A stretch of 60,027 nucleotides of DNA, counting the filler, from Hausera hauseri (Eukaryota): the NCBI GenBank assembly GCA_046269625.1. It is 11 parts of 11 records of this genome, joined end to end, with 100 filler letters (N's around TTAATTAATTAA, not from the genome) between each part and the next. Parts side by side here need not be neighbours in the genome. Positions count along the whole stretch, not along the records: positions 18,340 to 28,761 come from JBJURY010189971.1; 10 more parts are not named here. The stretch is one strand, 5' to 3'. Each line of letters opens with the position of its first letter. Positions within the stretch are counted from its first letter, which is position 1. The translations under genes and the position numbers were made by a program. Positions 4,601-56,780 of the stretch are shown here, piece after piece. The notes under the pieces were generated by a model. It was not told the origin of the DNA and searched no databases. It saw only the letters and a program-made list of their open reading frames with translations.

Positions 4601-5273
4601 ACATCATGGCTATGAAACATCCTTCCTCACGCCAATAACGACAGATAATATTTGTCGACATTTAACTTTGACATAAAACATTAACGGGGTTAATAATTTG
4701 GTTGCCGATTTCTTATCTAGGGCAGTTGGTTCGATTAATTTTTTACCAATCTTCTCTCAAGTACAACTCCAACAGAACCAGCCACCTCAGGATATGTTTA
4801 ATTCTTTTAAGTCTTGCACAATTGTTGACGGCATGGCTTTAGACACTTCCAAACCAGGTCATGCCGTAATAATTCTCGCACCACCTTTACAACGGAAAGC
4901 GTTTAACAGTGTACATTCGCTACACTACCCTGGCACTAAGGCCACTTTTCGTTTACTCCTCCGACAAGTAGTTTGGCCGCAAATGCGCTCCGATGTGCAG
5001 ACTTGGGTTAAGGAGTGTGTGGACTGCCAGAAATACAAAACAATTAAATATTTAAAGCCACCACTATTCCACTTTCCATGCACATCGCGTTTCATTGGCC
5101 CTCTTCCTCCGGACAACGGTCACCAATTCATTCTCACTATGATGGATCGTTCCTAGCGATGGCCAGAAGCCATCCCTTTGCGGAGCGCAAATACCAACAC
5201 CATAGCTGACGTTTTCATTCGTACATGGATTAGCAGGTTTGGATCACCTCGCTTCATCATCACGGACCAGGGT
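1640..5273 (+). mobile_element. Decayed Ty3/gypsy retrotransposon gag-PR-RT-RH-IN (continues at 55393)
   Basis: Gag-like region with Cys/His motif (ICMYHAKF...AHNC); protease LVNSGA (D>N); RT SPWSSPLHVVQKKDG, IDLFKAYHQIP, MPFGLRNAAQTF, YIAD (YxDD mutated); RNase H TDAS and VADFLSR; integrase H..H..C..C; many stops and frameshifts. Confidence 0.92.
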
Positions 5274-5389: not shown

Positions 5390-7175
5390 ATTTTTTCCAG
5401 CGTCAATTGGAACACTTAACTATTTTCTCCAGTGTCAGGGTGGTACACTGCACCATTTTCCCCAGTGTCAGTGGAGACACTGCACCATTTTCTCCAGTGT
5501 CAGGATGGGACACTGAACAATTTTATCCAGTACCAGGATCAGATATTGCACCATTTACTTTGTCAGGGCGGGACATGAAACCATTTTCTCCAGTGTCAGG
5601 GTACGAAACAAAACTATTTTCTCCAGTGCCAGGATGTGACACTAAACCATTTTTTTCAGTGTCAGAGTGGGACACTGCACCATTTTATTAATGTCAGTGT
5701 GGGACACACACCATTTTTGTTCATTCGAAAGGTGGGACACTAAACTATTTTCTCCTATGTAAGGTTGGGACATGAAACCATTTTCTCCAGTGTTATGATT
5801 GGACACTACACCATTTTCTCCAGTTTCAGGGTGGGACCCTAAACCATTTTCTCCAATGTCAGAGTGGGACACTACACCATTTTCTTCAATGTCGGGGTGG
5901 GACTCCAGTGTCAGGATCTGTCAGGATCAGTTTTCTTAGTATTCTTAGTATTCAGAACTTGACAATTTTCTTCAATGTAAGAGGACACTACACCATTTTT
6001 CCCAGTGTCTGGCTTGGACATTACACCATTTTCTGCAGTTTCAAGGTGGGATGATGCACAATTTTCAGTCAGGGTGGGAAACGAAACCACTTTCTTCAGT
6101 GTCATAATGGGACACCACCATTTTCTCCAGTGTCAGCGTGGGGCACTGGACTATTTTGTCTAATGTCAGGGTATGACTCTGCAAGATTTATCTCCAGTCT
6201 CAGGGTGGGACACTACACATTTTTTTGCAGTTTCAGGGTAGGCTACGACACCGCTTTCTCCAGGGTCAGAGTGGGTAAAAATTAATCCACTTTCTCTAGT
6301 GATGAGGAAAAGCAAAACCATTTTCTCTTGTGTTAGGGTTGTACACTACCCCATCTCGAGTGTCAGGATAGGAAACAATCTTTTTCTCCAGTGTCAGACT
6401 GGGATGCTTCACCATTTTCTCATGGTCAATTCTAGAAACTACACCATTTTCTCCAGTGTTAGCTGGGAAACTAGACCATTTTCTCATGAGTCAGGGTGCA
6501 AAACAACCATTCTATAAAGTGTCAGGGTGGGACACTACACCACTGTGTTAGTGTCAAGGTGAAACACTATAATATTTTCTCAAGTGTTACATTGGGAAAC
6601 TACACCATTGTGTCCAGTGCCAGGGTGCGTCACTAAACCATCATCTCCAGTGTCAGGGTTTGCTGCTACACTGTTTTCTCACGTGTCAGTGTAGGAAAAT
6701 AAAACATGTTCTCCAGTGTCCTGGTTAAAAACTATATCTTCTCCATTTTTAGGGTAGATCACTACACAAGGTTTCTGGAGTGTCGGGGGGTGTGGGGTGG
6801 GGGAGGCACTACACCATCTTCTCCGATGTCAAGGTAGGAAAGTAAAATATGTTCTCCTGTTTTCTAATGTCATTGAGGGACACTAGACTATTTTCTCCAG
6901 TGTCAGGGCAGGGCACACCATTTTCTTAATTCTCAGTGTGGGACACTACACCATTTTCATCGATGTTAGAGCAAGGCACAATACCATCTTTTACAGTGTA
7001 ATGGTGGGGCACTACACCATTTTCACCAATGTCAGGGGAAGGCACTATACCATTTTTTTAATCCTCTCAGGGTGGGACAGTACACTTTTTTCTATAGTGT
7101 CAAGGTTGGGCACAGCACCATCTTCTCCTTTGTCAAGATTGAATGCTACACCATTTTCTCCAGTTTCAGGGTTGT
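5390..7175. repeat. Degenerate 33-bp minisatellite (~50 units), consensus ccattttctccagtgtcagggtgggacactaca
   Basis: Unit recurs head-to-tail without spacers; internal AGTGTC/GACACT inverted repeat. Confidence 0.93.
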
Positions 7176-7840
7176 CTCCTCATTGATACAGACTGGTACG
7201 ATTGCTATTTATATTATATATAATTTGTAGATTTATGAGGAGCTGGAAGGAGTGTGGGCAACCACTTCAACAGCCACGGAAACTCCGGAACTGCAGATGT
7301 TCTCGTCACGGCTAGCAACTTCTCCTATTGCGACGAGAATGCTCGCCACACGGTGTAACAGAGGTTGGTGCATAACTTGAACAATCTTGCTCCTAACGGT
7401 CTTAATATTCACCTTTCTTTTCATTAACCTGCTTTTGTTTCATCCCCTTGCGTACGATCCCTCCTTCTATCATTCCACTTACTTTCCTACAGCATCGCCT
7501 GCCTTCCCCTTTTGTCTCCCAGCGATCTTTCTTGCGTCTCTCCAGTCCTGTATCTCTACGCGCCTCTACAACCCCTCCCCTTATGTTTGCGTTTGTTTTT
7601 GTTCTGATTTGCGCTTCCCATTCGGCGGATCTATCACATGACTCTGCGGGGTCCAGCCGCTGCTTTCTTACCACATGCCGTCAAGCGTCGTCCTTCTCCA
7701 GATCTACATCGTGTGTGGCGGTGTGATGCTGGACATAAATAGGCTTAGTTCTATTTCCATAGTTTTTTCTTTTATTTTATTGTATCTTGTAGTCTCGGTT
7801 TATGTAGTCATGTTTGTCTTTGTGTTGTATTGTTTTTGTT

Positions 7841-10940: not shown

Positions 10941-12388
10941 TTATTTATTAAACCGCCCTTTCTTTGCATTCGGTCCACCGAAATTTCCACCAGCCGGTCT
11001 TTTAAACCCGGCAGTATTATTATTGAATTTATTTGTTTTAGTTTTCGCAGTATATTTTCCACTTTCAAAAACTCTCATCATTTTCTCTAAGAAAGCTCTG
11101 AAAGCAATTCCCTGTTCAACTTTAGCATCATCAGCATCACAAAGCGCATCGATTCTCGTTGCGAGAGCAGCTTTATTTGCAAGCATTCTGGACATTTTAC
11201 CTTTGTGTTGTGAACTGACCTGACCCACCAATGAAGCGTGATAAAGCAAACCATATTTTGGTGTGTTGTGTTTGGTTTTTAAGGCTCTGAAAAGTGCCTT
11301 CTCAGCTCCAAGAATTTGTACAGTTGAACTTGGATGTTTTGCTAAATTTATCAGCGTACCGGCGTGGGAAATAAGTCGAGCACCCAAAATTTCACCAACG
11401 ATTGCTGTGAGATTTGGTGCAACGGCCATCATTCGGTTCTTCAAGTATTCGTAGAGTTGGGAACGATTATTTGAAATCTTCTTTATCATAGTGCAGAGAT
11501 TTAAAATCATGTCCAAATCACCGTCAGTAATTTGATTACCACATGAAGTTCTTGCAGCATCTCTTACAGGCTCAATGAGCTCTTCGGATAAAATGTCTGA
11601 CAAATCCTTCGTCAGAACATTTTCACGACGACCGACATGAGCAACAAGGTTAACATAGATTGTATTATCGGAAACTGTCTTTGCTAATTCTGGAAAATGC
11701 CATCCGTACATTTCTTTGCACCGCATTACGTAATTATTTGATGCTTTGTCCAAATCATCCAAAGGAGCTAAATATCATTAAAACTAAAGGGAATAAACAA
11801 AACATTACAAATGGCCTGAACAATCATAGTATCAATCTTATCTGGGTTACACTTCAATTGGTATCTGTTGATACTGTGGGACAGACCAAGATTCAATCTG
11901 TCTCTTTCTTCGTCACCAATTGAAGTAAGTAGTTCAAAATTTTGGATGACACACTTTCGCAATTTTGTAGCATTGACATTGGACACGATTGATGCACCAA
12001 GTTTATCATTCAATTGCTTTCCCAAATTTGGGTCACAGACAACAAGTTTTTCACTTAGTTCAACGAGTTTCATTTTCTTAACTAATTTTTTCAGTTTCTT
12101 AGTTACCTTACATTCGGCTAATGAAACGGCTTCAGTTAAACCGTCCTTCATATCCTTAAACTTTACAAACTTTTCAAGTTCAATCCTGATAAATCATAAA
12201 TTTTTACAAATGTTTGACAAGCTTACAATTGATTAATGCCATCTTCATTCATGAAATGAGAATACACATTATCGATTTTATCGATGTCTTTCTTTAACTA
12301 ATTTTAAATAAAACACAAAAATATGTCTATTAAAAATACGAACCCTAAACACAGCATAACCAGCTGAACTTTCAACCAAAAGAAACAT
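10941..12388 (-). CDS. NOP58: Nucleolar protein 58 (box C/D snoRNP); exons 12388-12344, 12297-12227, 12185-11809, 11767-10941
   Basis: MFLLVESSAGYAVF start; KIDTMIVQAI, YGWHFPEL, STVQILGAEKALFRALK, TPKYGLLYH; GT-AG introns of 46, 41 and 41 nt keep the frame. Confidence 0.93.
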
Positions 12389-13835: not shown

Positions 13836-16036
13836 GTTGTCCTAATGATAGCCGCAGGTCGTCAACCTCAATATTACGTTTTTCATGGCTGAAACTGTGT
13901 AGATGATTTCCTTCAGCAGTTGGAAACAATAGTAGAAACGGTAATCGCACCTTAGTACAGCGGAAATAGCAACAAACCTTTGATATGGGCCGATGAAGCT
14001 GAACGTCTGACCTTTGCAGTCATAGATGAATGTTATCTGTGCCACAAAATATTACCGTTTGATTCATTTCAACGGCTCGTACCGGATCACAATTATTTTG
14101 CCGGGCGATATGTAGGAGCAGCACGCAATTCGTGCAATTTTGCAAGGCATGTGAAGCCATTCCTATCGGCGATTTTTCATAATTTCCGGAGTTATAATTG
14201 CCACCATATTCTGAAATGGGCCATAAACGGTTTTCCACACTGGAAACTATCCATAATACCAACAATGATGGAGAAGTACCTATCCCTATCGGCACGCATA
14301 AACCGGTTACAAATACGGTTTTTTGACTCATTGCAGTTCCTCAGTAAGTCTCTAGGAAAGCTCGGAAATGCCTTGCCAGATGTGCCTCTAACGCTGACGC
14401 AGTTCCCTGCGCATATTGCGTGCAGAAAAGGCATATTCCCATATGACTTTACTCTTTCGTACGAGCGTCTTCAGACAACAGATGAATTTCCCCCAAAATA
14501 AACCGGAATCATAGAGGACGAGTACCACAGAGCACAGGAAGAGTGGACAGAGCTCGGCTGCAGAAACATGTTGGAGTACATGCTCCAGTACTTGAAACTG
14601 GACGCGTACTTGTTAGCCGATGTGTTTCAGATATTTCGTGCTAAGGCGTTGGTGGAAGATAGGCTGGAGCCGCTAAACTTTTACTCCATACCGAGAATGA
14701 CTTGGGCATCCGCACTAATGTCGCTGGACAGGGAAATTGAGCTGTTGCAAGACCCGAAAATGTACTGACTATTTGATGTTGGTATTTGTGGCGGCATGGC
14801 ATTTGTACACAACCATTATGTAACTAGTGATGATACCACATCAATGTTGTATATGGACATTAATAACGTGTACGACTGGGCGCTTTCGCAACCCTTGCCG
14901 TACAGTTCATTTGAATGGATAATGGACAAACAAGAACTGGATACATTGCTGGGGAGTCTGCCAGCAGCAGCAAACACGAGGAAAAGCAGCTCAGTCGGCT
15001 ATTTAATGGAAGTCGATCTTTTGGGACCAGATAAGCTGTATGGCGCTATTGAAGAATTATCCAATGTCCACCCGGCTCAAAAGTAAGGAAACTGCTCGTA
15101 ACGCATGAATCCAAGTCGAATTACGTAGTTCATTGGCGTCTACTGCAGTTTTACATGCAGCTTTGTGTACGCGTCACACAACAGTATCGTGCAATCTGCT
15201 TCAATCATGCGCCGATATTCAAGGGGTACATTGATGGAAATTCAGAAAAACGAGCCGCAATTTGTTCAGAGTTCGAAAAGGACTATTACAAGCTCAAAAG
15301 AAATTCACTAAAGGGGAAAATAGTGCAGATTCTGAAGAAGCGGCTGGTTACGTACACCAGCAAGGCTCAGTTTAGGCGATCCATGCACATTGCCGATGGA
15401 TTCGTTGCGGTACTATTAAACCGGGAAGAAGCCGTTCTGGACCGGACAAGTTACGTCGGACAAGTGGTATTGAAACTGAGCAAGTTAGAAATGTACGAGC
15501 TACAGTATCACAACGTGGCACGTTACCCGCAAATATTCGACGGCTGTGAGTAGTATCATTGCTGGTGACACAAACAGCTTTTTTCTTGAGCTGAAAAACA
15601 TAAATCAAGATCATTTGCTCAGACAAGTAATGTCAGATGGACTACTGGACACATACAACTACCCGCAGAACCATCCTTTGTAGAGCAGCGCGATAAAAAA
15701 CAAAATGAGCTGCTTCAAAGAAGAAAAATGAAGGCGGGGTTCAATACATGTAATGCATATTTTTGCGCCCAAAGTGCTACAGTCTTGTGTCGGACTGTGG
15801 GCCAAAAATGCGGGCAAAAGGCATCCAGCTAAAACAGATGGAAATAAATCACGATGATTATTGCCGTGCCTATGATGGACAAAAAGAAGAAGGAAAGGCT
15901 GTTGTGTCTCAAACGACCATACGATCGATTGAGCACCAGTTGTATACCATCACAAATAAAAAAGGTTACTTTGTCATGCAGCGATTACAAGCGAAAGTGG
16001 GTGGGGCGAAATAATAGTTGGGCGTATGGACATTAG
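13836..16036 (+). pseudogene. Protein-primed family B DNA polymerase (Polinton/adintovirus type), decayed
   Basis: CYLC...DHNY..GRYVGAA, FHNFRSY, FFDSLQFL, RKGIFPYD, YLKLDAYLLADVF, DINNVYDWAL, KAKG-like RAKG, C-terminal AYGH; many frameshifts. Confidence 0.9.
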
Positions 16037-18339: not shown

Positions 18340-21300
18340 AATTTTGATAATAGTCGAAACAGTTTTTCTAGTAAATCAAACTATCATACAAATAAACGCC
18401 TAGATGGCCCCAAAAATTTTAATCGACAGAACGGCAGCCGAAATTACGATAATGGTCAATATGGAGACCCTAGATAGGCTACGTCGCAGCAAGGATACAA
18501 TAGAAATCCGAGTAGGTATAAATTCCCATTAAACGAAGATGGTCGACAAAAGATCGGAGGAAATGGCAACTTAATTTGTTATACATGCGGACAAGAAAAA
18601 CACATAGCAAGGTCCTGTCCAATTCCGCGAAGTGTCTCGTTTGTCAAACCTAGTAAAACTAATGTAATTAAAAATGAAAATTTGGAAGCAATTTACGGTG
18701 TCCGTAGAGACACGGGCATGATCATTGAGATACAAGACTTACGACGTTTTCTAAAGACCCAACCTGATACTACGGATCCTAAAGTTTTAGTGGCTAGAAA
18801 CGAGTACGAACATAAGTTACGACTATTAGAAGTTTATCGCGGTCTGCGCGAACCAGAAACAGAATATGAACGTTCCATTGCCCCACCAAGGCTAAGTGAC
18901 ATGGCACGGAAGAAGAACGTTCCTACAATAAACAAAAAGTTATATTAAATAGAAAAGCCTGAGACCCCAGGCAAAGCAGATTTGGATGTAGAACCCAAAT
19001 ATACTATAAAAACGGTAACTAAGGAGGCAGAGGCCGACAAAAAAGAAGAATTTCTAGAACCGCTTATACTTAAAATTACCAAGAAACGAGGCCGTAGCCC
19101 ATCATTGAGACGAAAACGCAAGGATCGTTCTAGATCTTCAATGGTAAAGGAAAAGTCAAACACAAAGAGAGAAACCGAAATCGCGTTACAAAGCAATACG
19201 GAGCGTGCCTCGAACGTTTTGGAAAATAATCTAGTTACGCCCGTCGAAATGAATGAGCCCACGAAATCTGTAAATGAGATAAATGACGTATATCTTTTAC
19301 CTTCTAGCGAAGAGGAAACAGAACAAGAGGAGAAACGCGATCCAAAAAGGTAGAAGATTAGACGCTCATGGAAATGTGCCGAAGAATTAAAAAGAATGAG
19401 GACGAATTGTCTGAATCCAGAGGTAGTACAACAGAATCTGGAGAAACTCAAGACAATGAGTGAACAAGTGGATATTTCTGGCAAGGAACAACAGTTTGTA
19501 GAGAGATTATATAAAAAGATGAAACTATATAGTGAAGGAAAACTAAGCAAAGCCATAGAATTAGATCAGCCCGAAGAAGTGTCGACGGAAACTCTAACTC
19601 AGTGGAAACGCAAATTAAAACGTTGGATCAAAAGCAAGACAAAATTTCCGGAGACATGGAATAAAACTACTCAAGACATTGAAACTAGAATCAACCAGGC
19701 TCAGTCGATCTTAGCTACATTAGAAGCCAACCCGAAATTAAAAAGAGCCGTACGTAATTTAGAGCGTGTCATGAATGAAATTAGATTTGCAATAGTCGAA
19801 CAACTTAAAGGAAAGCCGGTCGAAGAACGAGATGCAAATGACCTAGAGATGTTGGGCATAGATTCATAGATATTCCACCCTTGATGGAGATGATAAAGGT
19901 CGCTTCGACGGCCCCAACGCAATATACAAGTTTGGAAAATCGTATTACAATTGAAGCCGAAAAACAGTCGCAGATATATGGTTTAAGGAACAGAATTATG
20001 TACACTGATAACAAAGAAACTCACAAAATAATCATGGCTTGCATCCTCGAGTTTGATGAATACAAGGACGAGTTTTATTATGCCTACCGGATCATAGATT
20101 TTATTAAAGGCCCAGATGATGAGCTAGAAAATGCTCGCAAATTGTTAGACAAAGCAATCTTAGCAAAGCCAGAAATCGCTAATCAGTTGAACGAATGGTC
20201 AAAAGTAATAACAAGGTTAAGCGAATTAATAAACAGAGGGTAGAATGAATTTCCGAAGAGCGACCCTACAGTGAAAAAGCAACTAGAGGAAAATGCCCGA
20301 AATCTAGATATCATGAGAACAGAAATTGACATCCGTACCCAATTCGAGGCACTGCATCAATTAGACTTTATAGAAAAGAAACAAGAAATGATAATACTAG
20401 ACGATATATATGAGATGATCGAAGAAACAGACTTTATGCGGAAACAAAAAGCGACTTGCAATTTCTACCCGCGATTATGACGGCCAAGCCTATCGAAGAA
20501 ATATCGATCCGAGATCTTAAAACCTTGGACTTTTGTCCCAAATATCGGTCGATCGCTGAAGAAACGGTGAAATTCTTACACCAACCACAAGGATGGATGG
20601 ACGGAATGGATCAGCGATATAATACCGAACTGATTAAAGTAAAGAATGACCACCACCTTAACTTCGAAGAAATCAAGTTTGTAAAAAAATTATTAGATTC
20701 GATATATTCGGATTCAAAGAGTATTAACGACATGTACGAATTAGCAATATTGATGACAGAAATGGCAAAAATTAGTGACGAAAAACTAAGCCAATTGTTA
20801 CAACAGATACAGCAAGTCGAAGAAACTTGCATTAAGACAAAACAAAGAGCGATGAGGTTAGACGAACTAGCTAGAGAACTCGAAGTCTATAAAACAAATA
20901 CGCCCTTACGGAAGCAGAAAAAGCTGACAAGTCACAATTCATTCAAAGATGGCAAAGAAATGTCACGTCTAAACAACGAAATATCAAGAAAAGGGGTTAA
21001 TTTCATCCGAAGAATTATGTTTGTTGTTAACACTACTTCACCAAACATCCGCTAATGAGCGATGTTTCCGAACGACGAAAATGGTCCAAATTCAGGAAAA
21101 ACTACAAAAACTCAGAAAAACCACATGGACCGCAGGTGTGGACAGGCCAACTGATATACCGTCGAGGAACTATCAATTGCCAGATAATGAAAATGAACCA
21201 GATTGGGAGTCATATTTAGACGCAATGATCGCCGAGAATCCGTAAACCCCAATGCGATTGGATGAAATGGAGGTATATTCTCCGGACCAAAGTTCAACGT

Positions 21301-22010
21301 AGAAATGCTCCTGGATCCGGTACAAACCGAAAAGGATTGAATTCAATTAACTGAAGTGAACCTCACTGAAAATCAACTAAGACGTCTAGTTCCCACTTTA
21401 ACCAAACTAGCTAGCGAAGGTACGATTTCTAGTACGGTACCTAAGCTTTTACTTAAGGAATATTCTAAAATTTTAAAGGCAAAGGTAAAGGAAATGATCC
21501 CAGTAAAGATAGTATCAGACTGGATGGACGAGAAGGAACAAGAGTTCACTACGCGCTCCCTTGTAAAGGACGTATTACTGTGAAATTGAGGAATTGAACG
21601 AGCTGATGAAAGATTTGATACGAATAGTAAACCACTCTAATCTCGGTGGTGATGTAATAGATGAGAAGGAGAAGGCCATAGCGAATGCCGCAAAGGTTAT
21701 GAAAGGTCTTCGGTGTAAATTATCTAGAAGTACCTTAAGCAATGAAATGATAATCGAGAAAATTATGGTAGAAAATACCATATAAGAATTAAGAAAAGTA
21801 CTGCTATATCTGGCATTAAAACGAACCCAAATCGAGAAAATTAATTTAACAAGGCTACTAGCTTGGCAAGAAAGGCTGACAGGAAAATACCTCGAGAGGT
21901 AAACTGGTCTAAGTTATTTGAAAAAGAAGAAGAACATCAAGACAGATTCTTCTCAGGTAACAATAGATTCGAAGATCTGATACGAAATGTAACCGGAAAT
22001 CACAGAGGAA
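18340..22010 (+). pseudogene. Gag C-terminus (N/R-rich linker, CCHC knuckle) fused in frame to ~1100-codon unknown helical region X
   Basis: CYTCGQEKHIARSC is in frame with ORFs 18682, 18982 and 19396; later ORF pieces are collinear with homologues at 41292-44060. Confidence 0.75.
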
Positions 22011-22019
22011 ATTAATCGA

Positions 22020-24162
22020 ACTGGCTAATTAACTTTTTGACCATGCTGATATTAATAAGGCAGATGGGCGCAGTCACAGTATATGATTGTGACAAATTTA
22101 GACTTGGTCAAAAATATTCGCTAATACACTTGGAAATGTGCAAAGATGCGATGCCCCGCAGATTAGAAACAAAAGAGAAAAGTTACATATTGTATCAACA
22201 ACGCGAACTAGTTACCTTGGATGGAGTAGAATGTATGTTGCGGCGATCTCGCAGCATCTTCCATTGTGGACTGGTACATGGACACTCGTCAATAATTAAG
22301 CCAACAACCCCACTAATTCCGATAAATTTAGAGCGACAGCATTGTAATCAAGCTAGACAAACGGGCAGAATAAAATGGGACGGCATGGAAATGGCAATGC
22401 AGCAAGGAAAAATAATCAGAGTGTATAAAGTAGCACCAGGAAGGCTAGATATGCACACCAGACATTGTCAAGGTACAGAATACGATACCGGAAAGGGATT
22501 AGAGTCAAACGTCGTGGTAGTAGATTTTTACAAAAACGAAATGCGCATACAGAAAGTGATGTTTCATGGCGTTACTAAATTTTACACCGAGAACCACAAG
22601 TGCCACATTCAGGATGGCACATGCCCGTTTCGAAGTTCTGTAGTAATTTGGGAACCCCCAGCCAAAACCGATTGCAACTTTATCAGAATTAAAGAACTTA
22701 ATTTCGACGAGGCGACAGGAAAACAATACATAAGTAGTACAGAAACTAACTCTAAAACACGAGAAGATGTAGCCGAACAGACTACACCTACGATATTGAT
22801 TCCTGATACTTATGGATTGAAATTTGTAAAGAAAGCTATGCTCACCAGATGCGACGTCATAATGTATGCCACCAACTATGAAACATTTTTCGTAGCCCAG
22901 ACAGAAATAAACGCCAGAACGTTCAAACACGAGACTCAGGACATCCGGATTGAAGATTACTTGAAGAACAGAGATGACTACTTCTACTATAAAGGACAAG
23001 CCGAAATAGCCGAGTTGTACCACAAGATGATAACAAACGACTGCAAATTGGATTTGGAAATCATGAGAACTAAACTAGCTCTAATATACGCAAATCCCGA
23101 GTTGGCATCACCAATAATTCCAATGAAGGAGGGTGTTTTAGGACGAGTAACCGGAGAGGTTCTATTGACGTATGAGTGTGAAAAGAAATACGTACCGATT
23201 AATGTGGAAGAGAAGAGGTGCATACAAGAACTTCCAGTGATATATCAGGACGTACCGAGATTAGTAACACCAATTACCAGAGTGTTGTTGGCAAACGCCA
23301 CCCAACCAACAATTTTAAGAGACTGTAAAACCAGCTTAGGAGAGCCAACGTTTAGACGTATCGAAACCGACTGGGTAAGTTTACCGAACGGTGATATTAT
23401 CGCACCACCTAACAAACTGACAGGAACAAACTTAATAAAGGAATAACCGATGATAAATTTCAGGATACAGCCGCGAAGGGTATCTACCCACCAAAAGAAG
23501 TAGAGGTGTTCAGACAATTTCTCGCTTTTCCCCGTCAGCGCACACATGAATTAAACAGAGCAATGCATACAATATTACAGAACTCGCATTACTAAGCAAA
23601 ATTGGAGTCATTACTTGGTGTTGGCCATTACAAGAAGGTAACTACAGAAATATTATACAAAATTTGGGGAAGATTCCTGATATTCGGACAGGCCGCGTCC
23701 GGTTTTCTAGCGATATACTTCTTAATTCAACTAGTAAAAGCCATAATTCAAGCAATCATAAATGGACACGAGATATTCACCTTGACAGGATTTTCGTGTA
23801 AGATTCTAACGGTTATTATTACTTCTTTTGGCAAATTCCTAAAGGCTTATGAAGCGAGTAAATGGAAAACAGATGTGCAGCGACATATTGGCTACCATAA
23901 TCAAAAACGGAAAAGGCGTATATTCTACTACAAGCAAAAATTCATAAATGCTACGACACGAAGAAATAATTCGGATGATGAGCAGCCTAAGGGAGGAGAC
24001 GTCATCCCCAGGCGGAAGAGGCACAAAAATTACTCTGTTATGAAACTACCATTACCGATTTTGCTGCCAACGGCACCAATATATGAAGATTGCGAGAAAC
24101 AATCTATGAGCTCGTGCCAGACAAATATCTATAGGAAGCCGTTTAGTTTAGAGGATCCTTAA
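22020..24162 (+). pseudogene. Env: chuvirus-glycoprotein / gB-like (class III) fusion protein
   Basis: Hydrophobic signal then VYDC..YSL..C..LYQ..EC..RSRSIFHCG..HSS; Cys-rich ectodomain; GEVLLTYEC, CIQELPV, KGIY..FP; membrane region WGRFLIFGQAASGFLAIYFLIQLVKAIIQAIINGHEIFTLTGFS; lesions at ~23446-23600. Confidence 0.8.
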
Positions 24163-24518: not shown

Positions 24519-27500
24519 ATCGAAGGCAGACCCTTCGCAAAGATTCAATTGGAAGATTGGGAAGTTTATGCACTAATAGATACAGGATCTGAAATATCAC
24601 TAATAAAATATGATTCGATACCACAATTCTTACGGAAATAATTATATCCACCTCTGCGACAGCCCCAGGAAGCATTGGAGTTTTCCGACAATCCTCGAAG
24701 AGTAAATTCCGATGGAAACCGGAAATTCACATAATGGGGCAATCTTTTCGTCATGAATTCTCAGTAATGTAGAAATTAACGGATGATGTAGTGTTAGAGT
24801 GTGACCTATTGAGACAACTACCTAATATAGCAATCGATTTTAATGCAGGCAAGTTGATAGAACTTGGCACAATAAAAGTAGCTAAAACCACTAAAGACAG
24901 AAAATTCGGAGAAGTGTGGATTTCAGTGGATGAAACTACACCACCCAGAACAGAAATCCTAATATATGCTCAAATACGTCAGGGTGAAGATCAACCAATA
25001 TATTTTGAACCAAAGGAATCTCTCGATCCAAACCTCGTGCTCAGCAATGTTTTGACAAGAGTATCAACAGGCCGTGTACCAATCAGAATAGCAAATAATG
25101 CGCCCATTTTAACCAAACTGTAGGCCAATACCACTCTAGGACACACGTGTAGAGTATCATCAATCACTACTGAGAAGAAACCACATAAGGGTGGCGAATA
25201 TCCGCCACACGTGGAGACTAGGTTTTCACAAGAATCATATTGTCGATTTTACGAATTGCTTTGTTGCTATAGCTCGATTATCGCGAGAGATAAAGAAGAT
25301 ATTGGTTTAGCCAAAACCCTAAGGCTCACGATTCTACCTAAAAAGAAGCGCGGTTCCAACGACGAAATAGATTTAGAGGATCTTAAGATGCCCAAATGAT
25401 GCCCTCCTCCACACTCGTTAAGGCCAGAAATAACTAAGGAGGTTGAACGAATGTTAAAGGCCGACATAATTAGACTAAGTTACAGATCTTGGTATTCACC
25501 GATACTCATGGTTAAGAAAAAAGGTACCAGTAAGCACCGATTTTGTACCGACTATTGAGCGTTAAATACACTTATGATGAAGGACTCTTTTCCGTTACCA
25601 TCAGTAAAGGAAGATTTGGACAGACTTTCGGGAGCTAAATGGTTTACCACGCTTGATTTACAATCTGGATATTGGCAAGTAGAGATAGAGGAGGAAGATC
25701 GTTACAAAACGGCACTTAAGACACATAACGGTATATATGAATTCAATGTTATGCCCTCTGGAATAACTATCGGACCAGCCATCTTTACCCGTATGATGAA
25801 CAAAATGCTAATGGGACTGGAGCACGCATTTGCATATCTGGACGACGTTATGATTGCGTCGAAAACGGAAGAAGATCATTTAAAAGACATTGAAGGTACA
25901 CACATGAGATTGGAGCATGCTGGATTGAAACTGAATCCAAAGAACTGCAAATGGGCTCAGAATACTGTGTCGTACCTCGGACATATAGTAGGAGAAGGAG
26001 GATCGAAGCCGGAAAAATCATTATTAAGTAAGATATCTGACTGCATGGAACCTCAGAATCAAAAGGAATTAAGACACTTGTTAGGATTATGTGGATATTA
26101 TGCCACCTACGTACCAGATAATGCGAAGATAAATGCACCGCTATATCGTTTATTAAAGAAGGAAATCAAATGGAAATGGACCGATGTCGAACAAAAGGCT
26201 TTTGATGAAATGATAAAAATTTTAACTAGTGAACCTGTTTTAAGATATCCTGACTTCAACCTACCGTTCATAATTAAAACAGACGCCAGTAAGGAAGGTA
26301 TCGGATATGAATTGGCCCAAAAACGAGAAGACGAGGAGTTGGAACATCCGATTGCATACGGAGGACGTTCACTAAAGAAAGCTAAGAAGAACTATTCCGT
26401 AACAGAGTTGGAAACGTTAGGGGTAAAACAAGCCTTGCGACATTTTAACGTGTACGTATATGGACAGAAGATAGTAATCGTTACTGATCATAAGGCAGTT
26501 ACGACTTTAAAGGGTAGAGCTAATAATCCAACTTATAGACTGAGCAGATGGATTGAGGAAATCTCACGTTACAATATTGAATTTCAATACAAACCCGGAA
26601 GTAAACATTTCGATGCCGACGCACTATCGAGACTTAAAACCCAAACAAGCGCAGTTACAGTAATGAGGAAAGCACACCTTGATGATGTAGTAGAAAGACA
26701 ACGGACTCTCAAATTAGATAAGGCATTAAAGATTGCTGTCGAACAGAGAAAAGACAGGGTTATACAACAGATTTTCGAGTTCGTTGATACCAACGTAATA
26801 CCCAAGGGTCATCAGTTACGGAAACACCTACGACGATATGGTCACAAATACTGCGTCACTGGAGAATTGAACCTCGAAAATGTGTTATACTACTAACGAA
26901 AATGACGAAAATTAGTCGTCATACCGAAGGGACTACGAACAGAAGCACTCATGGCCGAACATGATTCATACATAGCCGGACACATGTCGTGGAAAAAGAC
27001 ATTGGAAAGGATATTAAATAAGTACTATTGGCCGAGCATTTATATTGACGTAAGGAATTGGGTGGATGCTTGCGAAGTATGCGCAACCAAACAAAGAAAA
27101 GTGAAAAACTATGTTGCGGAGCTTAAGCCTATCGACGTGCACGATAGGCCAATGCAAGCAATGTCTATGGATATTGTGGGACCATTGCCTATGATCCACA
27201 AAATCAACAAGTATATTTTGACCTGTGTAGACCGATTGACTCATTTCGTCGAGCTTATCATGTTGATAGACCAAAAAGCCGAAACGTTGGCAGAAGTAAT
27301 AGTCTGGAAGATTATTTGTAGATACGGACCGCCTGAACAAATTTTGACAGATCGAGGGAGAAACTTTACGAGCGAATTTTTCGACAAAATTACCAAAATT
27401 TTTGAGATTGAACGATTAACTACCACAGCTTATCATCCCCAATGCAATGGAATGTTGAACGAATGAACGCAACAGTTATACGAATCTTATCAACAGTAGT

Positions 27501-27620
27501 CGCAAAGGACCGGAAAGATTGGGATGAGTTCTTAGAAGGTACACAGTTTGCCACTAATACTACTCCACATCCTGCGACAGGATTCACTCCATTTTTTTAT
27601 GATGTACGGAAGAGATTAAT
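24519..27620 (+). pseudogene. Pol: aspartic protease, RT, RNase H, integrase (Ty3/gypsy order)
   Basis: RPFAKIQLEDWEVYALIDTGSEISLI; FTTLDLQSGYWQV, AYLDDV; IKTDAS, YSVTELE, TDHKA, DALSR; H..GH..CEVC, SMDIVGP, LTDRGRNF, AYHPQCNG. Confidence 0.95.
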
Positions 27621-28056: not shown

Positions 28057-29032
28057 TTAAGGATTAAATTCGAATTAAACTTTATAGTTAAGTTGAGAAT
28101 TTGTAAACTACGCAAAGCACCGCACGCAGTACAAGCATCATAAACTAGTGCAAACATTCTAACGAGAACGTTAAGACTTACCTGCTTAAAATCATTTTTT
28201 TAAATTCGAGTTTCAATATTGTTATAGTTGGGTGTTGAATAGGGACCACCTTCAACTACTAACATACATATTGAGTAAATTAGCAGTTCTCTTTTGTACA
28301 TCATGGTTGCTATGGCAACGATGAACGCATAGAGACACAAGATTACAGGCATGTTTGATTTATTTTTACCGAAGAAAACCTTAGTTACTGGGTGTAAAAC
28401 ATTTTGAGAGCACTTTATTCGTTATTGGTTGCTATAGTAACGAGATATACTTAGTAACACTTGATTACAAGTTTAATTCCGCTGATAATTCCGACATTTC
28501 CATANNNNNNNNNNTTTTTGCACAATTTCAACTTCAAAACAATTTATCAATTGTAATCAATACATGTTTCCTAGACATTATCAAAATGTTGAATTTCATA
28601 TAAAATGAGGTTTCAGTGCGTTGAAATACAGTTCAAAACGTTGAAACCTCGATAACAGTATTTTGAGAAATTATTCAACACTCAGAGTTTAAATGCTCTT
28701 TTTATTAAAGTAATGAGCCCCCGGTTGGTGCCAACATCAGCTTTTCATGGAGCACTAGTCCNNNNNNNNNNNNNNNNNNNNNNNNNNNNNNNNNNNNNNN
28801 NNNNNTTAATTAATTAANNNNNNNNNNNNNNNNNNNNNNNNNNNNNNNNNNNNNNNNNNNNATGCGGAAAACTGTTCCAGGTGATTGATTTCTACTCGAC
28901 CAATGAGAAGTTCGAAAATGAAGCCACAATAAAATTTCGAAAATTCAAAAATTCAAAATCAGCAATCGACTACGAAATCCATTAGCATACGTTGATTTAT
29001 CATTTAATAACATCGTTAGGTTTCCCGATCAT

Positions 29033-30940
29033 GTGATGATGGTTACCGATGAGTTGGATCTTAGCAACAATAAAATTAGAACTGTTAGTCAGAATATGTT
29101 AAAGAAACTCTCAGGTCATACAAATAAAAATCTCGTCATGCACGGAAATCCGTTGGCTTATCCGCCGAAAGAATATTCGGAAATGGGTTTAAAATCAATG
29201 GTTAAATTCTACGAAGAAAACGCAATCGAAGAAAATAATTATTACGGTATCAAAATATTCGGTATGGGCTGTGAAATGTACAAATCGCGAATAATCAACT
29301 CATTTGTAGATCAGTTCGATGAAGATGATTCATCGAATAATGGGGAAAATAAAATCGATTTAATCGAAACGAATCTGGAAGATGATGGGCCGAGTTCAAA
29401 ACCATTTAACGTTCAGATCGTTGATATAATATACGGAGACAAATCAATCGATTTAATGTCCCTTATTTTGACCAAACCGGCGTTATTTCTACTTTTTATC
29501 GATGTTGATAAATATTCGGATGAGAATTTTGAAAAATCCACAGGAAATATTTTGAAACAAATCATCGTTTTAAACAACCAAATAACGTTTATTTTAATCT
29601 GTGTTACACAAAACGATAATGAAATCCGAACCAAAGAAAAAACTCGACAGTGTCGAGAAAAAATCAATAAACTATTCGATGATTATTTGGCGAACATCAC
29701 CGTTGAATTGAGGAGTATTGAATCGAAGAGCGAAATAACACCGACAATGAACCAAAATCTGAAACGATACATCCATTTACAATCGGTCAAAATCGACTGG
29801 CACAAAGAATCCATTGTCATCAAACCGAACGATCCGAAATCGATCAGTCAAATTTTAAAAGCCATTCATAAAATGGGCAAAGGTTCAAAATTATTTCCGA
29901 AAACGAAACATATTATACCGAAATTTTGGGTCGATGTTCAATCGTATTTGGAGGAGGATTCGTACTATTTCCCGTTGGTGACGTTCGAGGAATTTGAACT
30001 GATCATTCAGCAACGATTTAATCTCAGAGCAGCTGCTATAAAAATCGCGAATTTTCTTCATGAAACCGGGAAAATTCTGTGGTGGGAAAATGGTGTTAAA
30101 CCCCTTAATTTTTGGGTTGTGACCTGCCCGCAAACATTAATCGACTGTTTAGCCGTATTCTTCCAGAACGATTTGAAAGCGTATTTAGAGGATCCGAATG
30201 ACGTTGATTTAAAGTTAAGGAGATTTAAAAAGAAATTTCCTGGAAGCAAATTTACGTACAAAGAATGTTGTGGTATTTTGATTAATGAGGCGATTCTCCT
30301 GCCAGAACTAGCAATTATTTTACTGGAAAATATCATGCCCGAAAACAGCATCATTCGAATGTTGTACTTTCTTACCGAATGTCTCGGTTTGGGTTACCCT
30401 GTCAGTTACCCGAAATACCTCCAAACAAATTGGGATTCCCTGTTTATGGAATTGAAAGAGAGTCAGTCAGATTCGACGACAATCGTGTCCAGTGTTGAAT
30501 ATCGAATAAAATCCGCAGATTCCCATAAATCGGTGGAGTTCAAAAGCAGTAAAATACCGCCGATTTTGTTGAATTTCCTTTTGCATAAATCCGATTGTTC
30601 GCCTGAAACTAATAAATGCTGGAATTCGGCAATTGGTTTTCGAATTGGTGCTGCATACAAATTTCCTTTGGGTTTACAACTATTGTTACGTCATCAGATT
30701 TTCAGTCAATTTTCCAGTGTACATGGTGTCAAAGTAAGGAGATTTATCAATTTTTTCTGGTGGTTCTCTGATTGGTTAGTTCTATGCCTTTATCGAATAA
30801 AACTCGAAAATATTTCGTACTATTCGTATTGTTCACTATCCTTACTATTGAGAAATGCATGCTGGATAAATCATTAGCTGTACTGACCAAAACTGGTCTA
30901 ACAAAGGAACTATCATTGTAGTAACCAACTCCGACCGTGA
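29033..30940 (+). CDS. ROCO-family (LRR-Roc-COR, MFHAS1-like) protein, partial, degenerate Roc domain
   Basis: LDLSNNKI and GNPLAYPP LRR cap; Roc-like ILTKPALFLLFIDV; COR motifs IPKFW, FLHETGKILWW, PQTLID; likely intron from GTAAG ~30733. Confidence 0.7.
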
Positions 30941-39400: not shown

Positions 39401-40020
39401 AATATGCTGAAAACATCGCTTGAGTTCAACAAGCCAATATATGTGGGTGTGGCAATACTGGACCTGTCAAAGACCTTGATGTACAAATTCCACTATAATA
39501 TTATGATCCCCACATTCAAGTCCATACAGCTGATGTATATGGATACTGATAGTTTCGTCTATCAGATCCATAATGAGGACATTTATGAGGACATTGTTAC
39601 GCTGTCACAGCATATGGATACGTCTGATTATCCGAAGGAGCATCCTAGCTATTCAGTAGCCAACAATAAAGTTCTTGAGAAATTCAAACACGAGGTGAAT
39701 GGGACAATCATCTCGAGATTGTAGCTCTTAAGTCCAAATTGTATGCAATTGATGTATGTGGTCAGGGCAAAAGAAAGCTAAGGGTGTTCAAAGAGCTACC
39801 TTAGCCAAGAAGATTACTTTTGCGGATTATGTGAGAATTCTGCATAAGCAGACTCACATTATATCAGAGATGCGAAGGATCCAGTCTAGGGATCATAACA
39901 CTGAGACATTAACATTACAGAAGAAGAGCCTAGATTGGATGGACGACAAAAGGCAGATTCTGGGTGGTGGAATAAGCACACTACCTCACGGACATGTCTC
40001 ATTGAAAATATGTACATATT
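36420..40020 (+). pseudogene. Near full-length pPolB (Polinton/adintovirus type), decayed
   Basis: VNVRNNDNMCFMYAIL, CYLC..DHGHFTG, PVVFHNLSCYDSHFI, KRKGVFLYDY, YLKTDVLLLTDVFESFR, NNLYGWAM, FGKTMEN, YMDTDS, KKAKGV, DDKR. Confidence 0.93.
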
Positions 40021-41291: not shown

Positions 41292-44200
41292 AGGTCGGAA
41301 TAAGTTGTCTTAACTTACTTTCAGTAATGTTTACGTTAATTAGCTCAATTAAATCCCTTTCAGTTAGCGCTGAATCCAGGAGCATCTCCACATTGTATTT
41401 CTTGCTCTTCGGGCACGTTTCTATTTCTTTTAGCTGTACTGGACTCACAGGATTTCTGACCGTTATTGCCTCTAAGTATGCATCCCAATCCGGTTCGTTC
41501 CAAACATCGGGAAGTCCACAGTCTATTAAGGTTGTATTTGTTCTTTGAACATTTTCTCGAATTTCCTTCAATTTTGAATGTATTTCTTTTATCTGCGTAG
41601 TTCGGAAACCTATGCCATTTCCACAGGCATACTGAATCATTGTCAATAATTTACCTAATTCGTTAGAGTTGACGAGTCATTTTTGGTGATAATCCGTTAG
41701 TTCAATAATTACATCTCTTTGCAATCTTTGTACAAATTCACTCTTATTTTTGATCTATAATTCGGTAAAAGCATATTTATTTCAGTAGATTTCTAGCTCT
41801 TTTATTAACTCGTCTAACCTTGTTGCTTTTTGTTTGGTTTTAATGGAAGTTTTTTCAACCTGCCTTATTTTAGGCATCAATTGCCTCATCTTCTCATCAT
41901 TAATTTCTGCCATTTCTACTAATAGAAAGGCTAGTTCATACATCTCATTTATGACTTTTGAGTCGGGATCTATTGCATCAAGCAATTTCTTTACGAACTT
42001 AGATTTCTGAAAACTAATATGTTGGTCATCTCTTATCTTCGTCAACTCGGTGTGGCAATTCTGATCTGATCCGGTCATCCATTCTTGTGGTTTATGCAAG
42101 AATTTTACTGCTTCTGTTAGAGCTACTCTATGTTCTAGACAAATATCTAGGGTTTCGATATCCTGGATTGAAATCTCGTCTATAGGTTTATATGTTAACT
42201 GTTGGACTCCTTCTAGTCAGACATTTCTTAATCTTGGATAAAAATTGGAAGTCATATTTCGCCTTTCTGCAAAATTTGTCTCTTCGATCATTTTATAAAT
42301 ATCTTCCAATATCATCGCCTTTTGTTTCTTCATAAAATTTAGTCCTCGTAATGCTTCGAATTGAATTCGAATATCTATTTCCGCCTTACTTGTGTCTAAG
42401 TTACGTGCACTTTCTTCTAGCTGTTTCTTTATCGAAGGCTCGCTCTCTGGAAAATCTTTCTTACAGTTTTTTACTAATTTACTTAGTCGCGTTACTAATT
42501 CGGACCATTCCGACAATTAATTGGCGATTATTGGTTTTGCCATTATAGCCTTATCTAACATCTTATATGCGTCCTTTAATTCATTATCTGGGCCTGTTAT
42601 GAAATTCATAATCCGGCTGACATAGCTAAACTCGTTCTTATACTCGTCGAATTCTATGACACAAGCTTTAACTACGTATTGGGTTTCTTCGTGGTTTGGA
42701 GATACAATTCGGCTTCTCAAGCTATAAATCTACTCTTGCTTTTCATTTTCCATTTTGGTTCGATCCTCTAGATTTGTGTATCGTTTTGGTACAGCGAAAG
42801 CAATTTTTATCACCTCCATTAAGAGAGAAATATCTACTGGGTCTACACCCAATATTTCTACATCGATATTACTTCGATTGCTAACTGGTTTTCCTCTAAG
42901 CCGGTTAATCATTGCATGGCGAATTTCATACTTCATACGCTCTAAATTACGGACTACCCTCTTCAGTTTTGAATTTGTTTCTAAAGTATATAATAATGTC
43001 TGAGCTTTAGCGACTTTTACATCGACACTATCTTCGCTTTTGCTCCATCCTTCCGAAAATTCGACTCCACTTTTAATCCATGATTCTAATTCATGCTTCC
43101 ATTTTAATAACGTTTCAGGTCATACTTCTTCAGGTTGTATTAAGTCGGTTGCTTCATAGAGTTTTCCTTCACTGCATAATTTTAAAATTTTGTATAACCT
43201 CTTAGCAAACTGTTGCCCTTTTCCGGATACATCTACTTGTTCACTGATTTGCTTGAGTCTTTCCAAGTTACGTTGTATTATTTCTGGGTCGTAGCATCTA
43301 ATTCTCATTTTCTTTAACTAATCGAGTTTTTTACGAACGTCGAACTTTCCACTTCCTTGGATCAAAAGGATTAATGTTTTCCGTTTATTCCTCTGTAGTG
43401 TGAAGTGGGCAAATCTCGTTAATTTCTTTAATTGATTTTGTAGATTCTTTTACCTCGATAGGCGTTAATGGACCAATTTCTGGGGTATTTAAGCTATGTT
43501 ATACATCGCTTTCTACTATGATGTTCGTATTTTCCGCTTCTTCTAATTTTTTTCCAGTTACTGGTGAGCGTGAACGACTCTTATGTTTCGTTTTCAATGA
43601 AGGGCTATGGCCTATATTTTTGGTAATTTTAAGTATTAATGGTTCCATAAATTCTCTTTTATCTGCATCATCTTCGGTAGTCTTATTTGGCTTTTCAACC
43701 GTGAACTCAGGTTCTGCATCTAAGTCGACTTCTGTGGATGTTCCTGGTTTATCAGATATTTTATTACTCGTCGGAACGCACCTTTTCCGTGTCATATCAA
43801 TTTGTTTGGGTGCTATCGCATATTTATATTCAGTTTCAGGCTCGGCTAAACCATGATACACTTCTAATAGTCTTAGCTTATCTTTATATTATTTTCTGGC
43901 CATTAAAATTTGTTGGTTAATAGTCTCAGGCTTAGCATTAAGAAATCTTCGTAAGTCCTATATATCAATGATAGTACCTACATCGCCACGAACACCATAC
44001 TTTACTTCTACATTTTCATTAACTTTAATCATACTAGTCTTATTGGGCTCAGTAAAGAAAACGCTACCCGGATTGGGGCATGACAATGAAATATGCCGTT
44101 TTTTACCACAAGTAAAAAAACAAAATGTCCATTTCTGCCGACTCTTTGTCGACCGACTTCATTCACAGGTGACTTGGGACTATTTGTACTTCTACTGTAC

Positions 44201-45611
44201 TGATTCGGCAAACTTTGTGTACTATCTACATTTCTTCGACTATCATTATTTCGATTATCATCCTCACGATTTGAATAATTTGAACCTTTGTAGTTTTCTC
44301 GAATTCTATTCGAATTAGAATTTGACTTGTTCATATTCCGGCCATTAGCATAACTATGGTTTCGACTATTCCTGTAGTCATTATTACTATTTCTATTTTC
44401 ATAATTTCTATTTCCATTACATCGTCTATCATCTCTTCCACGGTTGTCATTCCGATTTCTATCATTACGGTCATTTCGATCATTATTTCTATCATTTCTG
44501 TCGTTGTGTCTGGCATATCTATCGAGTGCCATTTCTAAATCCTGAGCCAATTGTAGAATTCTCTCAAAATTCTCAGATCTGGCCAAAATCAACTGCTTAA
44601 CTAAATATCGGGACCAAATGCCATTAATTAACTGAGTTGTCATCAGGACGTCTACATCTGGCGGGGTTGCCTTTTTTTGCAGAATCGCGTTCTGCGTCCG
44701 TTTTGGCTTTTGCTACATTAGTTATTCTCAGAGTACTTACATAACTATTAGCAAGTTTTTTCAATGCAAATGCAAACTGGGTTACCGATTCACCCTTTGG
44801 TTGCACTCTATTTTGAAATGCTACAAGCTTTTGTTGTGGCGTTACTGTCGGCAATAATTTACGGTTTAATGCTCCTACCAGAGAGGACCAAGATTTCTTC
44901 TCATCACTAATGAGCTCACTACAAGTGTCAGCAGCTAAATTTTTCAAATACAACGACAAGCGTTTAATCATTACTTCAGGTGTGAGACTGGCACCTTCTT
45001 CGTGCAGTTTGTAAGTTCTCAAGAATTCATTAAGCCCGTCCGGGTCACCATCGTATGGTGGCAGATTCAGAGAATCAAAAGTAAAAATGTCCAGTTTTTG
45101 CGCTACTGGTGAGTTATCTGCTGCCATATTGGTTACGTAGTTTATATCTAAATTTGCTTTATTGATTTTATGTTTCTCAAGTGGGATTTTAAATTGCTTG
45201 TTTTGCCCGGTGACGTCTAATTTGATTCTATTTTCCAAATTTGAACGTTTATATAATTTTTTAGAATCTATGTATATATTTCTACGTGTTTGACTTATGG
45301 GTGAATTATCTTTTAATACAACGTTTACTTTTGACTTATCAATATTTGTTCTCGAAATATTGATTTTTTGTGTATATAGTACATTTTCATGGAATAATTT
45401 TTATGCATAAGGGGGTTTTTGAACATGCGGAATCGACTACCGCTGTTAGATTTTTCGAATATTTCGATATTCGAGCCAAAAAATATTCGAATTTCGAATA
45501 TTTGACTCGAGATTCAAGATCACCATAGTCGATATCCTATCTGTTCCCGCTCAATGTTATATTGAATTTTGTTTCCTTAGGACATAAAATACCTTTGGGA
45601 TGTCTGGTCCA
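41292..45611 (-). mobile_element. 5' part of a second, diverged member of the gag-X gypsy family (5' UTR, gag, region X)
   Basis: Gag capsid-like LPPYDGDP..FL..Y...RVQPKGESVTQF (44624-45238), N/R/D-rich linker, frameshifted CCHC knuckle ~44075-44125, then peptides collinear with 18680-21400; contig ends before env position. Confidence 0.88.
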
Positions 45612-55392: not shown

Positions 55393-56780
55393 ACACCATA
55401 GCTGACGTTTTCATTCGTACATGGATTAGCAGGTTTGGATCACCTCGCTTCATCATCACGGACCAGGGTCCACAGTTTGAATCCAACATGTTCAAATCCC
55501 TTGTTAACTGATTGGGGATCCACCACATTCATACTACGCCTTATCACTCCCAATCGAATGGCCTTCTATAACGATTTCACCGAACATTGAAAACGCCACT
55601 ACAAATCTTTGCAGAGTCCAACAGTAGTTGAACGAATCTTCTTCCTTTCGTTCTGCTCGGCTGCCGGAACACTCCATCCACTTCTACAGGATGCGCACCT
55701 ACTGAAGCTTTATTCGGATCTCCTGTCCGATCATTATTCAAATTAACCGCCCTAAACGACACTCCCACGGATGACACGATACGGGCGGCGCAAAATCACT
55801 TTGTCGAGGTCAGCAAAGATTCGTTCTGCAGGATACTTCACAAAGACAAAAACATACTCACCCGAAGATTTGTACATGGCTAAATTCGTATGGCTGAAGA
55901 ATCAAGCTCCTTGCGGTTTCCAAAAACGGTATCTGGGGCTCTATAAACTTATACAGCTACACTCGCATAACGCCATTATCTCGAAAGACGGTAAAGATTT
56001 CACAGTACAAATTACCAATCTAAAGACCGCTTTCATTGTCGACAACACCTTACCATCCGACACAAAAACTTCTTTTCTTACCCCTCCACTCCCTGCTATC
56101 ACTACATCTATTGCTACACCATTTCTAACTTCCTCTTTTGCGCCTAGTCTTGCTCCATCATTTTCTACACTTTCTACTTCTATCCCTACCACTCTTCCTA
56201 TCTCTTCCACTACCCCTGTATCATCTTCTTCTTACACTCTTTCACTCAACACAATTCCAATCTCTACTCCAACCTTTTCCTCTCTTTCTTTATCCACCAC
56301 TATGCCTATCATCACTCCTTCGTCTTCTAACACTCTTTCCAACGCCTTTAACAATCCGTCTTTAACAATCCCTCTTCCTCCTTTGTCTTATTCTTCTATT
56401 TATTCCGACTCATCTTCACACGACACAACAGCTACACCAAAATCTAACAATTTTTTCCCCAACCTCAATCTCTGCAAACAGACACATCGCATAAACACAC
56501 AACACACAGAGTCACATTCAGCCAGTATAGTAGGGAAAAATCAGTCGAAGGCATTCAACGTCTTATTCACACTAAGCTCAGCTAACACACTTTTCATTTG
56601 GCGGTTTTTCTCCCTATCCTTTATTCTTTATAATTTCAACTTTCCTACGGGGTGGAGTTGATGTGGTGCCCGCGTGGATCGTCGCCCTCCGGCTCATTCG
56701 GTTGGGCACGGCCGGGTTTCCGCTGCCAGCATGTCGTGTACATAGGCAGGCCCCGATCTCCCGCCAAGATTGTGTGGAAG
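55393..56780 (+). mobile_element. 3' part of the contig-1 gypsy element: integrase, S/T/P-rich extension, PPT, start of putative 3' LTR at 56662
   Basis: First 77 nt identical to 5197-5273; WISRFGSP, TDQGPQFES, TTPYHSQSNG; GGGGTGGAG then TGTGGTGCC. Confidence 0.85.

Follow-up and report, generated by a model that had tools for sequence, protein, structure and literature searches.

An orphan segment under purifying selection between Gag and Env of a Ty3/gypsy GAG-ENV-POL element in the Hausera hauseri assembly

The closest described systems to the element analysed here are the GAG-ENV-POL errantiviruses with a gB-type Env that Chary and Hayashi report from Nematoda, Bryozoa and Platyhelminthes (eLife, PMC13524379), and the planarian Burro elements (Burro/GYPSM1), in which a Gag with zinc knuckles is followed by accessory domains, by a mononegavirus-type Env in the same frame and then by protease (PR), reverse transcriptase (RT), RNase H (RH) and integrase (IN) (PMC6431247). 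Our subject is a window of 60,027 nucleotides from H. hauseri (GCA_046269625.1), made up of 11 eukaryotic contigs joined by N spacers, which holds two decayed copies of one abundant family of Ty3/gypsy GAG-ENV-POL elements. Copy A lies in the contig at 18340–28761 and copy B in the contig at 41292–45611, on the minus strand; as the window consists of separate contigs joined by spacers, the two are not neighbours in the genome. Between gag and env the element carries a long region, here called X, a genuine orphan stretch that was under selection and lies inside a single Gag-X-Env frame. Env-bearing Ty3/gypsy elements, with capsids that lack a matrix, are widespread in invertebrates. X, a large protein under selection and without a known family, occupies the place in which topology would lead one to expect a connection of capsid to membrane.

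In PMC13524379 each entry comprises the span of the open reading frames with 3 kb on each side, and the 19 flatworm and bryozoan entries in the accessible part of that paper fall into 14 that span 8.3–8.9 kb, four that span 10.9–12.0 kb and one that is clipped. The present element shares with such elements (for example Smed_errantivirus_5 and _6) the gag-env-pol order, the gB/chuvirus-type Env and a probable flatworm host, and its reading-frame span of ~10.2 kb (gag start to knuckle taken from copy B and the rest from copy A, with an uncertain integrase end) is near that of the long entries. Its Env ectodomain resembles the Schmidtea rows, by eye only; the YATNY motif occurs at two places in supplement 2 of the same paper, both in Schmidtea elements. 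In its accessible part PMC13524379 says nothing about the region between the knuckle and env.

The plan of Burro is likewise comparable, with a knuckle Gag, a long accessory region, an in-frame Env and then PR-RT-RH-IN. However, Burro reaches up to 25 kb internally with two or three knuckles, and its first open reading frame encodes near 4,900–5,100 residues, whereas the element described here has a reading frame of ~10 kb, or ~3,400 codons as estimated from copies A and B, and one knuckle. The Env of Burro is in frame between Gag and Pol; here the in-frame connection is seen for Gag-X-Env. The MATH, BIR, ankyrin, SUMO, BCL2 and dUTPase domains given for Burro in the accessible text have no Pfam match here at E values up to 1, a comparison in which low-confidence models could miss remote BCL2-like folds. 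A further paper (PMC8532177), as far as its accessible part goes, concerns Burro expression only. Judged from its sequence, the element most probably belongs to the GAG-ENV-POL errantiviruses and not to Burro.

Nematode endogenous retroviruses (NERV) also have Env between gag and pol, and the nematode entries in the accessible rows of PMC13524379 span 7.1–9.3 kb, mostly too short for an insert of the size of X. Mosquito BEL/Pao elements with a chuvirus glycoprotein have captured the same glycoprotein class, but belong to a different superfamily (PMC7642597, accessible part). Troyka (PMC12440569, accessible part) was set aside, its terminal signatures not being visible in these contigs. The gene order of the present element is already published, and accessory cargo in the slot before Env has a precedent. 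In NERV, Sacco et al. are said to have described, in 2022, a continuous gag-env-pro-pol frame, and we know of no X-like region in the mosquito BEL/Pao elements.

Element layout and the Gag-X-Env frame

Identity and layout of the element are held with high confidence. Pfam matches on copies A and B together give the order gag-X-env-PR-RT-RH-IN, and copy A alone shows a CCHC knuckle, 3.4 kb without any family, PF24664, RT, RNase H and integrase. The pol order PR-RT-RNase H-IN and a Gag with a capsid and a CCHC knuckle are those of Ty3/gypsy elements, the capsid match (PF03732) lying under the cut-off. As in GAG-ENV-POL elements, gag and pol are separated by an Env of the gB/chuvirus type that has both a signal and an anchor. 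The start of gag is missing from copy A, which is truncated by the contig end. As both contigs end inside the element, no match indicating paired long terminal repeats was found between the 3′ end of copy A and the 5′ end of copy B. Of the 15.5 million contigs of run X1, 26,298 fall on copy A, and these reach all 30 bins, those of X among them; they show an element family that is both abundant and diverse and of which X is a part. Between protease and RT, ~200 codons (24776–25393) are without a Pfam family; Burro has a dUTPase-like domain there.

The last residues of X and Env are in one frame in copy A, with a single stop between them at 22013. A total of 251 contigs were placed on 21900–22100, and at the stop 924 of a depth of 985 (44 contigs) reads otherwise, no indel being listed; the X-Env junction is bridged by four of the eight pieces shown, with at least 31 letters on each side. 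Since most family contigs differ from it at this position, the stop is private to copy A. In the family a single frame therefore runs from capsid and knuckle through X and the Env signal into Env, with PR-RT-RH-IN behind it. A first-pass annotation of the window had described X as fused to gag. The knuckle is indeed in frame with X, but X is also in frame with env and is therefore an internal segment of a Gag-X-Env polyprotein and not a Gag tail.

The hydrophobic stretch at the start of Env (Table 1) precedes the start of the PF24664 match, as expected for an internal signal sequence, and a C-terminal membrane anchor lies near 23700 (hydropathy 2.18). The PTAP motif of the cytosolic tail is a candidate late motif of the TSG101 type. 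At 23905–24030, before PTAP, the tail contains two strongly basic clusters, which could bind membrane or RNA.

Extent, selection and relatives of region X

From the knuckle to the Env signal, X measures ~1,134 codons, close to the ~1100 of the first-pass annotation, although it is open in neither copy. In copy A the knuckle enters X without a stop (open reading frame 18478–18948), and in copy B knuckle and X are in the same frame, as the annotation had it. Copy A carries seven in-frame stops and seven frame changes from knuckle to env, the last two frame changes (near 21580 and at 21860–21900) being placed from open stretches alone. Copy B carries 11 stops and one frame change in X, and its single frame from 43317 to 41293 has seven stops in 675 codons, compared with 90 and 58 in the other two frames. 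No stop common to both copies was found by eye, and both copies decayed after their divergence.

The two copies are collinear from the knuckle to the end of the copy B contig at 41292 and, at the DNA level, 64.7% identical in 2,528 aligned columns, which bears out the collinear minus-strand homologue first noticed; the four peptide pairs cited for it are all present, including EFDEYKDEF/EFDEYKNEF and NEPDWESYLDA/NEPDWDAYLEA. Codons were compared in six single-frame segment pairs, which were not joined, and after 14 knuckle codons and the stop-bearing pairs had been dropped 856 codon pairs remained. The comparison leaves out four short gaps and the last ~200 codons (21400–22024), for which there is no counterpart because the copy B contig ends. 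The proportion of synonymous differences (pS) is 0.775 and that of nonsynonymous differences (pN) is 0.257, with a pN/pS of 0.33 (bootstrap 0.295–0.367) that is far from a value near 1 and agrees with the earlier observation that the DNA has diverged while the peptides persist. Mismatches at the first, second and third codon positions amount to 0.34, 0.23 and 0.53, respectively. After correction dN is 0.31, whereas dS is undefined overall and 1.6–3.4 in three segments, giving an omega of ~0.13–0.15; at the 132 fourfold sites the copies show a difference of 0.545, equivalent in a hand calculation to a distance of ~1.0 and an omega of ~0.3. The spacing between the copies is nearly without indels across hundreds of codons. 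From the pN/pS it follows that the X protein was under purifying selection while two subfamilies diverged.

X is rich in E, L, K and I (10.5, 10.2, 10.1 and 8.6%, respectively). The description of the region as E/K/L-rich agrees with this composition. As to the helical or coiled-coil-like character also noted, there is no clear sign of a long canonical coiled coil: six windows pass the heptad score, compared with 0.9 on average in shuffled sequences, and ten of 200 shuffles reach six. No internal repeats were found in X and no membrane segment, the hydropathy maxima being 0.13–1.01 in copy A and 1.55 in copy B. The basic patch that had been noted is present, although it is less strong in copy B than in copy A.

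Table 1. Features of copies A and B of the element (positions count along the window)
Feature	Positions	Strand	Match or remark
Copy A, Gag tail (N/R/G-rich linker) and single CCHC zinc knuckle	18343..18621	+	PF00098, E 6.4e-5
Copy A, region X, ~1,134 codons	18622..22024	+	7 stops, 7 frame changes
X1, conserved block of ~100 residues after the knuckle	18622..18930	+	53–67% identity per 30-residue window
Linker, ~150 residues	18931..19386	+	30–43% identity; probably disordered, from composition
Conserved island with basic/RS patch inside the linker	19030–19120	+	67% identity
X core, predicted helical	19387..21397	+	40–61% identity to copy B by segment
YPxL motif in X	20466..20477	+	Also in copy B (42240); candidate late motif, could be chance
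Env, gB/chuvirus-type fusion glycoprotein with cytosolic tail	22016..24162	+	PF24664 (Monjiviricetes_fusion), E 9.5e-38 and 9.8e-16, two pieces
Env internal signal sequence, hydrophobic	22025..22081	+	Hydropathy 1.69; in frame of X end
PTAP motif in Env cytosolic tail	24067..24078	+	Candidate late motif
Copy A, aspartic protease core (DTG)	24525..24626	+	PF00077, E 0.0012, just under cut-off
Copy A, reverse transcriptase and RNase H	25415..26896	+	Pfam
Copy A, integrase (H2C2 and rve), broken	26906..27600	+	Pfam; 3′ end not fixed
Copy B, region X up to contig end	41292..44075	-	
Copy B, gag from likely start codon through capsid, linker and knuckle	44080..45127	-	PF03732, E 0.0035, under cut-off

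A HMMER search of 1.84 billion representative proteins returned one match to X, an unnamed singleton on a 2,157-base contig (P0001; 150 residues, 38% identity, E 1e-18), and this is the sole outside relative found. It corresponds to the part of the core at 20750–21210 and retains the spacing and motifs of the 465–613 region; therefore a third, more distant member exists. Pfam contains no family for X (a DED match at E 0.094, far under the cut-off, appeared in one copy only), PHROGs and NCBIfam have no match for the 675-residue X member, and the PDB sequences gave nothing credible (best E values 0.49, 0.17 and 0.21). Scattered PHROGs and NCBIfam matches to single members (best E 0.0006, MCE) were rejected as helical noise. 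Viral and metagenome contigs gave no match for X or Env, and phage records gave nothing; the ESM Atlas returned no usable match for P0001 or for 19387–19863, a result that shows neither absence nor novelty. In a word-based search the initial 306 residues of X had no relative at protein lengths of 537–2000 residues, and Env had none at 261–833 residues; as even relatives of Env were missed, the lineage is poorly covered and the blanks for X are therefore weak.

AlphaFold models of 675 residues of X alone and of 301 residues with five partial rows are both all-helical, with a mean predicted local distance difference test (pLDDT) score of 37.9 and 45.8, respectively, and only the first 30 residues of the latter reach ~70–80. 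X is thus predicted to be mostly helical. The structure prediction and fold search that the first-pass annotation had proposed gave low-confidence helical models and no credible fold match: Foldseek with the 301-residue model found nothing at E values up to 0.001, and the best VIA-align result (Z 8.1, a helical hairpin of residues 148–226) is within the range of that tool for common arrangements. Three ESCRT-I core rows (VIA-align Z 6.0–6.6) sit among unrelated hairpins and were not taken as evidence. A likeness of 42082–42327 (minus strand) to a SAM domain, seen by eye, has no Pfam or PDB-sequence match at E values up to 10; the second half of this stretch is the best-predicted part of the 301-residue model (pLDDT ~70–80), and no model covers the whole of it usefully. 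A likeness to the end of a Bcl-2 fold, also seen by eye, found no support.

As far as searched, X matches nothing named and seems to be an undescribed protein, in agreement with the first view of a selected, element-encoded protein that cannot be assigned to a family. No X-like region is described in the literature searched, which left out most subscription papers, Repbase and the sequence repository of the eLife authors. An already described gag extension exists in part: Burro provides a described case of this slot, and other GAG-ENV-POL elements have it by implication. No sequence match of X to a described extension was found.

Possible roles of X

We tentatively favour, at somewhat less than even confidence, a reading of X as a putative cytosolic scaffold that, instead of a matrix, would connect the precursor of the capsid with the membrane bearing Env. 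As hydropathy and the general topology of polyproteins suggest, Gag-X would stay in the cytosol while the internal signal of Env threads the ectodomain into the endoplasmic reticulum, and cleavage by signal peptidase behind this signal would leave Gag-X attached to the membrane at its C-terminus, an orientation opposite to that of orthoretroviral Gag. X could then form a layer between membrane and capsid. The endosomal sorting complex required for transport (ESCRT) might be recruited for budding through YPxL, which lies in X, and PTAP, which lies in the tail of Env, and the protease of the element may later release capsid and nucleocapsid from X. YPxL is a candidate late motif of the ALIX type. 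The Gag of copy B arrives at a capsid-like motif ~20 residues after its likely start, and there is neither a Gly-2 nor an N-terminal segment of the size of a matrix; with no N-terminal matrix in Gag, X is therefore the only candidate for a layer between capsid and membrane.

Several points weigh against the scaffold reading. A YPxL motif is expected by chance about once per ten proteins of the length of X (a hand estimate from composition), and both models of X are unreliable at the mean pLDDT values given above. Eight of the 13 unclipped nematode GAG-ENV-POL entries span only 7.1–7.9 kb (15 of 36 rows of PMC13524379 taken in; span counted by subtracting 6 kb from the entry length). An X would not fit into these, and the GAG-ENV-POL class therefore does not need one. 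Burro fills the slot before Env with host-derived regulatory domains (PMC6431247, accessible part). Run X1 may be the source sample, and its contigs are hence not independent.

X also differs from a retroviral matrix in lying C-terminal to the knuckle and in its length, and the copy B Gag lacks Gly-2, so that X is not a matrix protein by descent, though it may work like one. An extended form of the scaffold reading, which we consider unlikely, would make X a new structural class. It would be an inverted matrix or tegument layer, anchored at its C-terminus, through which Ty3/gypsy capsids without a matrix could bud into envelopes of the gB type; it would have arisen in a flatworm lineage independently of the retroviral matrix and would be shared with the long (11–12 kb) GAG-ENV-POL elements.

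Nearly as likely as the scaffold is that X is accessory cargo of the Burro kind, that is, several old, host-derived helical domains which the protease would release and which would influence cell death, RNA silencing or chromatin in the host, with no structural role in the particle. In planarian Burro the slot of X is filled by Smc-like, MATH, BIR, ankyrin, SUMO-like and BCL2-like domains (PMC6431247, accessible part), the size of this slot varies, as the two length groups of flatworm and bryozoan entries in PMC13524379 indicate, and the basic/RS patch could be a nuclear signal. However, no host protein was matched among the 1.84 billion representatives, the Pfam search revealed no Burro-type domain, and neither Pfam nor the PDB sequences back the likeness to SAM.

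It is improbable that X is a nucleoprotein- or phosphoprotein-like viral protein taken up from a Monjiviricetes virus along with the glycoprotein. The Env is a PF24664 protein and X stands directly before it, and nucleoproteins of negative-strand viruses are largely helical; but for X neither Pfam nor phmmer gave anything viral and viral contigs gave no counterpart, and this type of Env is old in errantiviruses, in which most GAG-ENV-POL entries are too short for such a gene (PMC13524379, accessible part). Of the three functions first offered for X, matrix-like and host antagonist accordingly remain candidates, whereas a captured viral protein is without support. A functionless spacer or decaying captured gene, open only because it lies in the frame leading to env, is very improbable and largely refuted for 856 of the ~1,134 codons: an internal polyprotein segment loses its stops whatever its content, and both copies here are broken, but maintenance of the frame leaves unexplained the amino-acid constraint seen in pN/pS and in the second compared with the third codon positions, and the nearly indel-free spacing and the motifs retained in P0001 likewise stand against it.

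If X is structural, as in the scaffold reading, it would be an independent solution to the job of the retroviral matrix; if it is directed at the host, it would be a new accessory family beside those of Burro. Either way, the unannotated 2–3.5 kb in the long GAG-ENV-POL elements are a concrete target.

Host and other features of the window

The host is probably a flatworm, as judged from one gene with long branches. This gene, a Nop58 coding sequence on a separate contig from copy A (10941–12193, minus strand), has two long frames without evident introns and may be a retrocopy. Its best named matches are cestode and monogenean proteins at ~60% identity, and in a tree of 26 rows (25 chosen from 120 listed matches and that of the window; midpoint root, long branches, rows from neither nematodes nor bryozoans) it falls, with support of 100/99, into a group with six neodermatan flatworms and three rows without a name.

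A second, different Ty3/gypsy element has its RT at 3474–4174 and its integrase at 4866–5273, continuing at 55395–55568; the two contigs concerned overlap by 77 identical bases (5197–5273 and 55393–55469). This element runs on into intronless, broken pieces of the RNA polymerase gene Rpb2 (57145–58667) and a Forkhead piece (58810–59715). A DDE_Tnp_4 transposase at 46734–48017 (plus strand) faces a YqaJ-like exonuclease at 48958–50136 (minus strand), two long open frames of a Harbinger-type DNA transposon. Broken pieces of a protein-primed DNA polymerase B, which are Polinton-like, lie at 13956–16000 (PF03175 for 13956–14498) and, by eye, at 37855–39724. A diverged tandem array with a 33-base unit occupies 5390–7208, and an open frame of 651 codons at 28922–30877 has weak LRR and COR-A matches (E ~0.001) and is Roco-like.

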